NCBI RefSeq assembly: GCF_044324875.1
Contig: NZ_CP172185.1
DNA from: Escherichia coli
Lineage (GTDB): Bacteria; Pseudomonadota; Gammaproteobacteria; Enterobacterales; Enterobacteriaceae
Strand: one strand, 5' to 3'
DNA: 64,000 nucleotides
Below are positions 25,204 through 27,596 of the stretch, in pieces. Position numbers and translations under genes: made by a program. Below the pieces are notes generated by a model. It searched no databases, had not been told where the DNA came from, and was given only the letters and a program-made list of their open reading frames with translations. How positions within the stretch are numbered: position 1 is the stretch's first letter; the number at the start of each line of letters is the position of its first letter.

Positions 25204-26036
25204 AAGGAAGAGCCACTTTTGCGCCGTTCGTGACAGTTTTGTCATGTCCTTGCTCCGGCCTGGTTTATGTTCATAAGTCCTTCTTCACCAGTATCTTTGT
25301 AAACCTTCACCCAGTGCCAGATAATGGTTTCATTTGATATATTAAACTGTGTAGTGGCCTAGCGCATGGTAAGTTCTTCACTCAAACCTTCAGGACAACT
25401 GTCAGTCGAAACTCAGGAGAGCCGCGGTCATTTTGCCATGTAATACCATCAATACCGTGGAGTTGCCAGCCCTTGACCCAGCATCGCTCTGATGTTTCTT
25501 CAACACCAAAACGTTCAGCGGTACGACGTGTACCATCGTGTCCGGCAATATAATGATTAACTACAGCTTATTCGGTTTAGAGAAAATATTTTGGCTTTGC
25601 CATAAAAACTAACCTTAATCAGTTGGATGTCCAACTTTTGGAGGGAGAGTCCAACGATGGTACAGGATTTATTCATGTTAATTTTTCACAAACTCCTTTA
25701 TTCGTGTGATGTTAATCACAAAATACCAAAGAGAACGTTGAAAAAATAATGATACATTGTAAAAGATATATTAATTAATTTTTCATAATTTTATTATATA
25801 TGCTGCATGTCAATTATTTATATACCAAAAACCGAACAAAAATATTTATTATAGGTATTATGAAATAACCTTTCCATATTGTTTATTTTAATGCAATCAG
25901 CACAGATTACTTCAAAAATATAATTAGATGCATGAAAAGGGAGAAACAATATATTTTATTGTTTAAGATATTTTGTTCAACATGTATGCTGAGAGATAAA
26001 CTTATCGATACTTAAAAAATCCGAAAAGGAGGAATA

Positions 26037-27596
26037 ATGATAACAAAAAGAGAAAGACGTTTCCTGAGAACAGTAGAATGGCTTGGCAATGCACTTCCTC
26101 ATCCCGTCATCCTGTTCATAATATTAACAATTTCCTTAATTGTAGTTTCGATGATTGGACAATATTTTAATATTAGCGCCCCAGACCCAAGACCACCTGG
26201 AGCTAAAGGCCGGAATGATGATGGTATTATTTATATTGTAAGTTTACTGGATGCAGATGGAGTTCGTAAAATTCTTTCGAATCTGGTTACTAATTTTACG
26301 GGATTTGCACCACTGGGCACTGTTCTGGTTTCTCTTCTTGGTGTTGGTATTGCAGAACGGTCCGGGTTAATTTCAGCAACCCTTCGTCTTATTGTGACAA
26401 AAGCCCCTGCAAAAGTAACAACTATAGCTGTTGTCTTTGCCGGTATCATGTCCAACATGGCTTCAGAACTTGGCTATGTCGTTTTAATACCACTTTCGGC
26501 AATACTTTTTCATTCTCTGGGAAGACATCCCTTGGCCGGGCTTGCTGCTGCTTTTGCGGGAGTCTCGGGTGGCTATTCAGCAAATTTAGTATTAGGTACA
26601 ATCGATCCGCTCTTGTCAGGAATCACCCAGCAAGCAGCGCAAATTGTATCATCTGATTATATTGTAGGGGCTGAATCCAACTGGTATTTTATGTTTGTCA
26701 GTACATTTTTTATAACACTCATGGGGTACCTGATAACAGAAAAAATAGTTGAACCACAGTTAGGGAAATACAAGGGTGGAGGGTTCAATCAGGATGAACA
26801 GTCAATTCGTAATTCATCTGATGTTACAGCAGTTGAGAAAAAAGCGTTAATGCTGTCCTTTTTATCTGTACTTCTACTATCTGTTATTGTTGCCATTCTG
26901 GTTATTCCTGAAGATGGAATCTTACGTAATCAACAAACAGGATTAATCAGCAATTCTCCATTTCTTAAATCAATAGTGGCTTTCATTTTCATATTCTTTT
27001 CATTAGCTGGTGTAGTATATGGATATACAGCGGGAACAATAAAAAATAGCAAAGATATTGTTGATGCCATGACTCATTCAATGAGTACATTAGGACTTTA
27101 TCTGGTCATTATATTTTTTGCCTCTCAGTTTGTAGCTTTGTTTAGCTGGACAAATATTGGTCAGGTTATTGCGGTTAAAGGCGGGAGTTTTCTGAATAGT
27201 CTTGATTTGCCAGATTCCGTAATATTTATTGGATTTATATTGATTTGTGCTGTCATTAATTTAATGATTGGGTCCGCATCTGCTCAATGGGCAGTAACAG
27301 CACCAATTTTTGTTCCTATGTTAATGATGGCAGGATATGCCCCTGAAGTAATACAGGCTGCTTATAGAATTGGAGATTCAGTAACAAACATTATTACTCC
27401 AATGATGAGTTATTTTGGGCTTGTTATGGCTATTGTACTTAAATACAAAAAGGATGCCGGTGTTGGGACTTTGATATCAATGATGCTTCCATACTCCATA
27501 GTTTTCCTCGTCGGGTGGTCTGTATTCTTTGTTATATGGGTCTTTGTACTGAACTTACCCGTTGGCCCCGGGGCATCGACCTATTATCTCCCATAA
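26037..27596 (+). CDS. AbgT-family transporter (p-aminobenzoyl-glutamate / MtrF-like)
   Basis: 519 aa polytopic membrane protein in a markedly AT-rich segment; N-terminal MITKRERRFLRTVEWLGNALPHPVILFIIL… typical of AbgT/YdaH transporters. Confidence 0.75.
   Translation: MITKRERRFLRTVEWLGNALPHPVILFIILTISLIVVSMIGQYFNISAPDPRPPGAKGRNDDGIIYIVSLLDADGVRKILSNLVTNFTGFAPLGTVLVSLLGVGIAERSGLISATLRLIVTKAPAKVTTIAVVFAGIMSNMASELGYVVLIPLSAILFHSLGRHPLAGLAAAFAGVSGGYSANLVLGTIDPLLSGITQQAAQIVSSDYIVGAESNWYFMFVSTFFITLMGYLITEKIVEPQLGKYKGGGFNQDEQSIRNSSDVTAVEKKALMLSFLSVLLLSVIVAILVIPEDGILRNQQTGLISNSPFLKSIVAFIFIFFSLAGVVYGYTAGTIKNSKDIVDAMTHSMSTLGLYLVIIFFASQFVALFSWTNIGQVIAVKGGSFLNSLDLPDSVIFIGFILICAVINLMIGSASAQWAVTAPIFVPMLMMAGYAPEVIQAAYRIGDSVTNIITPMMSYFGLVMAIVLKYKKDAGVGTLISMMLPYSIVFLVGWSVFFVIWVFVLNLPVGPGASTYYLP

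Follow-up and report, generated by a model that had tools for sequence, protein, structure and literature searches.

An MtrF-type transporter gene in an E. coli island

We analyzed a 64-kb stretch of Escherichia coli DNA (RefSeq assembly GCF_044324875.1, contig NZ_CP172185.1; hereafter the window) that carries an intact gene for an MtrF-type transporter of the AbgT family (26037-27596, plus strand, 519 aa). The gene lies in a very AT-rich block, with insertion sequence (IS) relics on its left and the gene for a serine-protease autotransporter (SPATE) on its right, and its product is probably an exporter of antimetabolites. An original prediction, made from the sequence without database searches, had described a stand-alone AbgT-family gene in recently acquired, AT-rich, and possibly H-NS-silenced DNA.

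The family assignment holds. The gene is a single open reading frame (ORF) whose product is a full-length AbgT-family member (PF03806, TCDB 2.A.68). The Pfam profile ABG_transport is matched from end to end (residues 8-517 against profile positions 1-502 of 502, E 1.3e-210), with a score of 700.4 bits against a curated cut-off of 27 bits. RefSeq labels the identical sequence 'AbgT family transporter'. In two genomes, PGAP names the allele WP_000584526.1 an 'AbgT family antimetabolite efflux transporter'; in another, the name is a plain 'AbgT family transporter'.

The gene also stands alone, as had been predicted. AbgA, AbgB, and AbgR of E. coli K-12 gave no match over the whole 64-kb window (tblastn, E<=1e-3), and the abgABT partners are also missing from the annotation of 43 kb of identical islands. 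When K-12 AbgT was used as the query over the same 64 kb, the transporter ORF was the only match (tblastn, 37.6% identity). The absence of abgA and abgB is real but not the anomaly that it had been taken for. MtrF-clade genes of Providencia, Xenorhabdus, and Gallibacterium also stand alone, so a lack of abgAB is normal for this clade; there and on two more contigs, the neighbors of the gene vary and include no M20 hydrolase genes. In our distribution survey of 5,426 complete E. coli genomes, the native abgT gene was matched in 5,401, in 4,103 of these over at least 80% of the gene. The island gene is thus an extra, divergent paralog.

AbgT-family members were predicted either to import p-aminobenzoyl-glutamate (PABA-Glu) or to export sulfonamide-type antimetabolites, through which the gene might alter susceptibility to folate-pathway drugs. 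By sequence comparison, the transporter belongs to the MtrF clade and not with importers of the AbgT type; its identity is 70.8% to Neisseria MtrF versus 38.2% to E. coli K-12 AbgT. The MtrF structure (PDB 4R1I) aligns with residues 4-517 without large gaps (E 1.4e-237), and the essentially gap-free 71% identity to chain 4r1i_A predicts a dimeric fold with nine transmembrane segments and two re-entrant hairpins. The protein scores 756.6 bits against the NCBIfam model for antimetabolite efflux (TIGR00819, cut-off 753.55) and fails the equivalog model for the PABA-Glu importer (NF008459) with 385.5 bits against a cut-off of 864. In a neighbor-joining (NJ) tree, it clusters with proteins of the MtrF kind, next to a Morganellaceae group, and AbgT is a remote outgroup.

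Both hairpin motifs of the family, as defined by Vergara-Jaque et al. (PMC4621753; HP1, S[NHS]xA[ST] followed by an acidic residue; HP2, S[AG]SA-phi), are present in the transporter. HP1 reads S139-N-M-A-S-E144, and HP2 reads S413-A-S-A-Q417. MtrF residues E147, D193, S417, W420, P438, R446, D449, and P457 are all kept, as E144, D190, S415, W418, P436, R444, D447, and P455, respectively. Su et al. reportedly linked D193, W420, P438, R446, and P457 to MtrF function in 2015. Mutation of S417 (S417A) impairs MtrF, and E147 and D449 are candidate protonation sites (PMC4621753). Expression of MtrF in E. coli gives resistance to several sulfonamides and less accumulation of sulfamethazine, and dependence on the proton motive force (PMF) has been proposed (PMC4621753). 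Because the transporter falls in the MtrF clade (71% identity to MtrF, 38% to AbgT), export of sulfonamide-type compounds is the favored activity and PABA-Glu import is disfavored.

The AT-rich block and its left flank

The block at 25658-27907 (2250 bp) has a GC content of 0.352, the lowest among windows of 2250 bp across the stretch (mean 0.492, standard deviation 0.05; 0.08% are as low), which bears out the distinctly AT-rich segment of the original prediction. Within it, the transporter gene has a GC content of 0.39 (0.29 at third codon positions, GC3), and the spacer between the transporter and the SPATE gene (27597-27907), which forms the right part of the block, has 0.30. The upstream DNA at 25650-26036 has 0.245. 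Values for the neighboring genes are 0.585 (ROK regulator) and 0.498 (SPATE).

The left edge of the segment had been set too early, at 25560, a position inside an IS3-family relic; AT-rich DNA starts at 25658. The long AT-rich upstream region that had been described was correct for 379 bp of native AT-rich DNA (25658-26036, plus strand, GC ~0.25). The rest of the 1.5-kb gene-free gap instead contains a YebF-family pseudogene, a mini-IS2, and the IS3-family relic. The pseudogene (24634-24988, plus strand), known from the RefSeq annotation of identical DNA, contains an internal stop, and its tail ORF (24814-24987) matches PF13995 (YebF, E 5e-12). The mini-IS2 (25116-25204) was recognized by its match to the window's own IS2 and has kept both IS2 ends with the interior deleted: 25116-25140 corresponds to the left end (50112-50136, 96%) and 25156-25204 to the right end (51397-51445, 84%). 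The IS3-family orfA relic (25205-25657, minus strand) was recognized from its translation, which is OrfA-like (MAKPKYF..AVVNHYIAGHDGTRRTAERFGV..) and broken by stop codons; its weak HTH_28 match (E 9e-5) falls under the Pfam cut-off. The corresponding site in strain TUM1886 is annotated 'IS3 family transposase'. The IS debris is nested: the mini-IS2 abuts the IS3-family relic, and the outer end of that relic (25657) precisely marks where the AT-rich block is bounded on the left.

Distribution and relatives

Region 24500-27950 was found in 28 of the 5,426 genomes at 99% identity or more, always on the chromosome. The transporter gene is at least 99.8% identical across all 28 carriers, and a full-length AbgT family transporter is annotated under the match in every one. 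The 2.25-kb block is 99.7-100% identical among four carrier loci that we compared, and protein alleles lie 1-3 substitutions apart. Chicken or chicken meat was the source of 18 of the 28 carriers, black kites of 2, and humans of 3; these are raw counts, uncorrected for lineage and for the base rate of poultry sampling. Three island architectures share only a core, which consists of the YebF pseudogene, the IS relics, the AbgT and SPATE genes, and an IS relic.

Four loci were inspected directly. The transporter gene is intact in three and frameshifted in CM2, where a 1-nt deletion in a T6 run (window positions 26701-26706) has led to a RefSeq pseudogene. This frameshift may represent genuine decay or a homopolymer error of long-read sequencing.

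We looked for plasmid carriage and rejected it, as no E. coli plasmid matched at the DNA level. Plasmid protein matches above 65% proved to be mislabeled Proteus or Neisseria chromosomes, and the sole genuine small plasmid, with a match at 64%, is one of 13 kb from Psychrobacter.

The closest proteins outside E. coli come from Providencia stuartii (75%), Xenorhabdus (72-75%), and Proteus mirabilis (73%), followed by the avian Pasteurellaceae Gallibacterium and Avibacterium (71%) and by Neisseria (71%). No donor emerged from 5.8 billion proteins, among which the best match outside E. coli has 75-76% identity; nucleotide identity is at most ~71%. The left IS relics, the narrow distribution, the near identity of the carriers, and the lack of a close donor all agree with the recent acquisition that had been proposed.

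More divergent variants occur within E. coli. The P0002 variant, with 80% amino acid identity and a GC content of 0.40 (GCA_025283275.1, 186-1745), lies beside an accessory module of aromatic-amino-acid transporter, gabT, and pdxR genes. This module is flanked by lldD instead in complete genomes, and in CM2 it lies ~10 kb from the AbgT-SPATE core. Strain E7-1N7 has a variant with 86% nucleotide identity that is internally deleted and split. It is followed by a convergent, intact yebF paralog of 117 aa (locus positions 8215-8568) that is 81% identical in nucleotides to the YebF pseudogene of the window. Because E7-1N7 pairs an AbgT variant with a yebF paralog, the comparison suggests separate acquisitions in which related enterobacterial donors supplied the transporter and yebF-like genes jointly, and the YebF pseudogene probably traveled with the transporter gene. 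Against the nearest E. coli variant, dN/dS is 0.08, with dS near saturation, and therefore points to a long history of purifying selection. Selection that keeps such genes in E. coli may be weak, because the CM2 copy is frameshifted and the E7-1N7 copy is deleted.

Expression signals

A strong Shine-Dalgarno sequence (AAGGAGG, 26026-26032) lies four nucleotides ahead of the ATG. The best plus-strand candidate promoter, obtained by a relaxed scan, has a poor -35 element (TCAGCA, 25897-25902) and a perfect -10 element (TATAAT, 25919-25924). Promoter and terminator counts in the standard scan equal the shuffle expectation. Downstream, 20 nt past the stop codon, RNA folding revealed a perfect 10-bp hairpin (27616-27638, plus strand) that is a possible weak terminator or transcript-stabilizing element. 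The fold of 27590-27670 has -13 kcal/mol (z -2.1). This hairpin has no proper U-tract behind it (AUUUCC follows) and is missing from the output of the terminator scan. The hairpin is kept in the degraded E7-1N7 variant, where homology extends to 27638. Read-through from the transporter into the SPATE gene may occur.

A riboswitch or leader RNA was considered and rejected: Rfam at a permissive threshold returned only a chance snoRNA (E=1) over 24400-28100. Nucleotide similarity among the homologs reaches no further upstream than ~14 nt from the ATG. Because there is no shared upstream sequence and the Rfam search was empty, we see no conserved leader or riboswitch.

Very AT-rich acquired DNA in E. 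coli is expected to be bound by H-NS, a phenomenon called xenogeneic silencing. The block has the AT content (GC 0.352, 0.245 upstream) and the patchy occurrence (28/5,426 genomes) of such DNA. One high-affinity H-NS motif with 1 mismatch occurs at 25999-26008, and the frequency of TpA steps is raised 2.5-fold. From its composition, we would expect block 25658-27907 to be bound and damped by H-NS.

The SPATE gene and the surrounding island

The gene downstream of the transporter encodes a Tsh/Hbp-like SPATE of 1274 aa (S6 peptidase; 27908-31732, plus strand), which among PDB entries is most similar to Hbp 1wxr (E 0, 1263 bits). At the nucleotide level, the gene matches tsh to ~89% over its first 2.2 kb and plasmid S6 peptidases to 92%. 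In every carrier locus inspected, it immediately follows the AbgT gene, and the two differ in composition. The plasmid relatives are found behind F4-type fimbrial and EAL genes, with a fimbrial gene 38 bp upstream and without the transporter; a figure legend in PMC6592367 gives a Sha/TleA-type context that agrees with this setting. The spacer at 27597-27907 has no plasmid match. The window SPATE gene is 51 nt shorter than the 1291-aa allele of strain Br_112_kylling. We also considered a functional coupling of transporter and SPATE, which is unsupported: plasmid SPATEs occur without the transporter, and MtrF-like genes elsewhere occur without SPATEs.

Two inverted IS2 copies (15345-16676 and 50115-51446) bracket ~33 kb that includes an ABC transporter/GDPD/ROK module, the AbgT gene, the SPATE gene, and IS66 elements. 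Homology of the window to other versions of the island ends at 16676. The module to the left of the transporter (18456-24539) is GC-rich (0.55-0.61). Its minus strand encodes a solute-binding protein, two permeases, and an ATPase, and its plus strand a glycerophosphodiester phosphodiesterase (GDPD) followed by the ROK regulator. On a Providencia-like metagenome contig, a ugp-like ABC system and a GDPD gene lie just downstream of an MtrF-like gene, which is probably a coincidence.

Interpretation of the locus

We propose that the transporter gene was acquired recently and is probably bound by H-NS, and that its product is an MtrF-type, proton-driven exporter of sulfonamides and p-aminobenzoate (PABA). 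We give this reading a probability of roughly 0.6, with function and expression predicted from homology and composition. A very AT-rich segment of 2.25 kb would have entered E. coli horizontally, probably along with a yebF-like gene, from a low-GC relative of the Morganellaceae within the Enterobacterales. It would now reside in a mosaic island littered with IS elements, directly upstream of the Tsh/Hbp-like SPATE gene. The transporter gene appears to be its own transcription unit, with a strong ribosome-binding site, the 379-bp upstream region of ~25% GC, and the hairpin after its stop codon. The PMF would most likely drive export of p-aminobenzoate-like antimetabolites, including sulfonamides, and PABA-Glu import by this protein would be unlikely.

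Several observations weigh against this proposal. The TIGR00819 cut-off is passed by only 3 bits. The standard promoter scan found no plus-strand sigma-70 site in 25658-26036, and H-NS motifs are not enriched overall. The CM2 frameshift and the internal deletion in E7-1N7 count on the same side, and we found no mention of the transporter gene or its accessions in the literature. MtrF itself is said to have been described first as an accessory to the MtrCDE pump, the original phenotype being attributed to Veal and Shafer in 2003, and its physiological role is reportedly debated.

The damaged copies in CM2 and E7-1N7 and the lack of a strong plus-strand promoter would also suit a gene that is passive cargo, silent or decaying in E. 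coli and kept only through linkage to the SPATE virulence gene in the mobile core of the island. The position of the transporter, directly upstream of the SPATE gene in each carrier locus inspected and within the IS-bounded core, would fit such hitchhiking, and the extreme AT content favors silencing by H-NS. We nevertheless consider this explanation rather unlikely. The gene is annotated as full-length in 28/28 carriers and is intact in three of the four loci inspected, the fourth (CM2) possibly being a homopolymer error; its alleles differ by 1-3 substitutions, its key residues are intact, and its ribosome-binding site is strong. The acquisition is also too recent for decay to inform either way.

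More doubtful is a version in which the gene is an unrecognized, island-borne efflux determinant for sulfonamides or PABA analogs that E. coli has taken up at least three times, once for each of the types represented by the window, by P0002 (80% identity), and by E7-1N7 (86% nucleotide identity). The type in the window, which occurs mainly in isolates from poultry, would then give measurable sulfonamide tolerance by a chromosomal mechanism that does not involve sul genes.

Import of PABA-Glu, a folate catabolite, in the manner of E. coli AbgT would provide a capacity for folate salvage, and public records often name relatives of the transporter 'aminobenzoyl-glutamate transporter', in keeping with the shared Pfam family. 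We regard this as improbable, given an identity to AbgT of only 38%, the failed NF008459 model (385 vs 864 bits), the lack of an AbgA/AbgB hydrolase in the window to use the substrate, and the native abgT already matched in 5,401 of the 5,426 genomes. MtrF, the closest characterized relative, behaves as an exporter (PMC4621753). Least credible is an accessory role in which the protein would strengthen the host's own RND pump (AcrAB-TolC) against bile, detergents, or hydrophobic agents and would aid colonization of the gut or host alongside the SPATE: orthology to MtrF and the virulence-type island with its SPATE fit such a role, but no RND or MtrR-like genes adjoin the transporter in the window or in the Morganellaceae homolog loci, and structural and biochemical work has re-assigned MtrF as an autonomous antimetabolite pump (PMC4621753).

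The gene is thus a known type of pump in a rare, mostly chicken-associated E. coli island and is of modest interest unless it confers sulfonamide tolerance. An expressed antimetabolite exporter would add a second way, unrelated to sul1, sul2, and sul3, in which E. coli could become less susceptible to sulfonamides. It is carried on a virulence-type island found mostly in chicken isolates (18/28), and screens for resistance genes would not flag it. If the doubtful reading of repeated uptake with sulfonamide tolerance is true, the tolerance would act where sulfa drugs are heavily used, and current catalogs of antimicrobial resistance genes would be missing the mechanism. Work on the MtrF branch, whose physiological substrate remains uncertain, would also gain a convenient system native to E. 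coli. If the gene is silent cargo, it is another case of xenogeneic, AT-rich DNA that travels alongside a virulence gene.

Comparison with known systems

We compared the transporter and its locus to characterized members of the AbgT family. Gonococcal MtrF (PDB 4R1I, TCDB 2.A.68) is ~71% identical over its full length and nearly the same size (522 aa, compared to 519 aa). The region of the HP2 motif is identical (MIGSASAQWAVTAP), and the HP1 motif is likewise followed by Glu. Both genes stand alone without abgAB. The E. coli gene differs in that it resides in an IS-flanked genomic island, not in the core mtr locus, and has no mtrR or mtrCDE nearby. The protein diverges from MtrF in the loop at ~245-265 and in the N-terminal 50 residues, and its predicted activity follows from homology.

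The MtrF-like genes found in Morganellaceae (Providencia stuartii, Proteus mirabilis, Xenorhabdus spp.), which also stand alone, have the highest identities outside E. coli (72-75% in amino acids, ~70% in nucleotides) and form the sister group in the NJ tree. They are monocistronic, have long upstream spacers, and have a gene GC content of 0.43-0.44. Unlike the island gene, they are core chromosomal genes in conserved neighborhoods; the E. coli copy is more AT-rich (0.39) and has no upstream sequence in common with them.

K-12 AbgT, a symporter of p-aminobenzoyl-glutamate and H+, has the same Pfam family and fold class, and conserved D, W, P, R, and D residues align. It is only 38% identical to the transporter, its HP1 and HP2 variants read SH.SSD and SGSAI, and it is encoded with abgA, abgB, and abgR, which are missing here. 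YdaH of Alcanivorax borkumensis (PDB 4R0C) is, like MtrF, an AbgT-family antimetabolite exporter of solved structure. It was reported to be Na+-modulated, with an Asn/Asp/Asn site (PMC4621753). YdaH aligns with residues 6-511 of the transporter (E 1e-123) and is a far more distant relative than MtrF.

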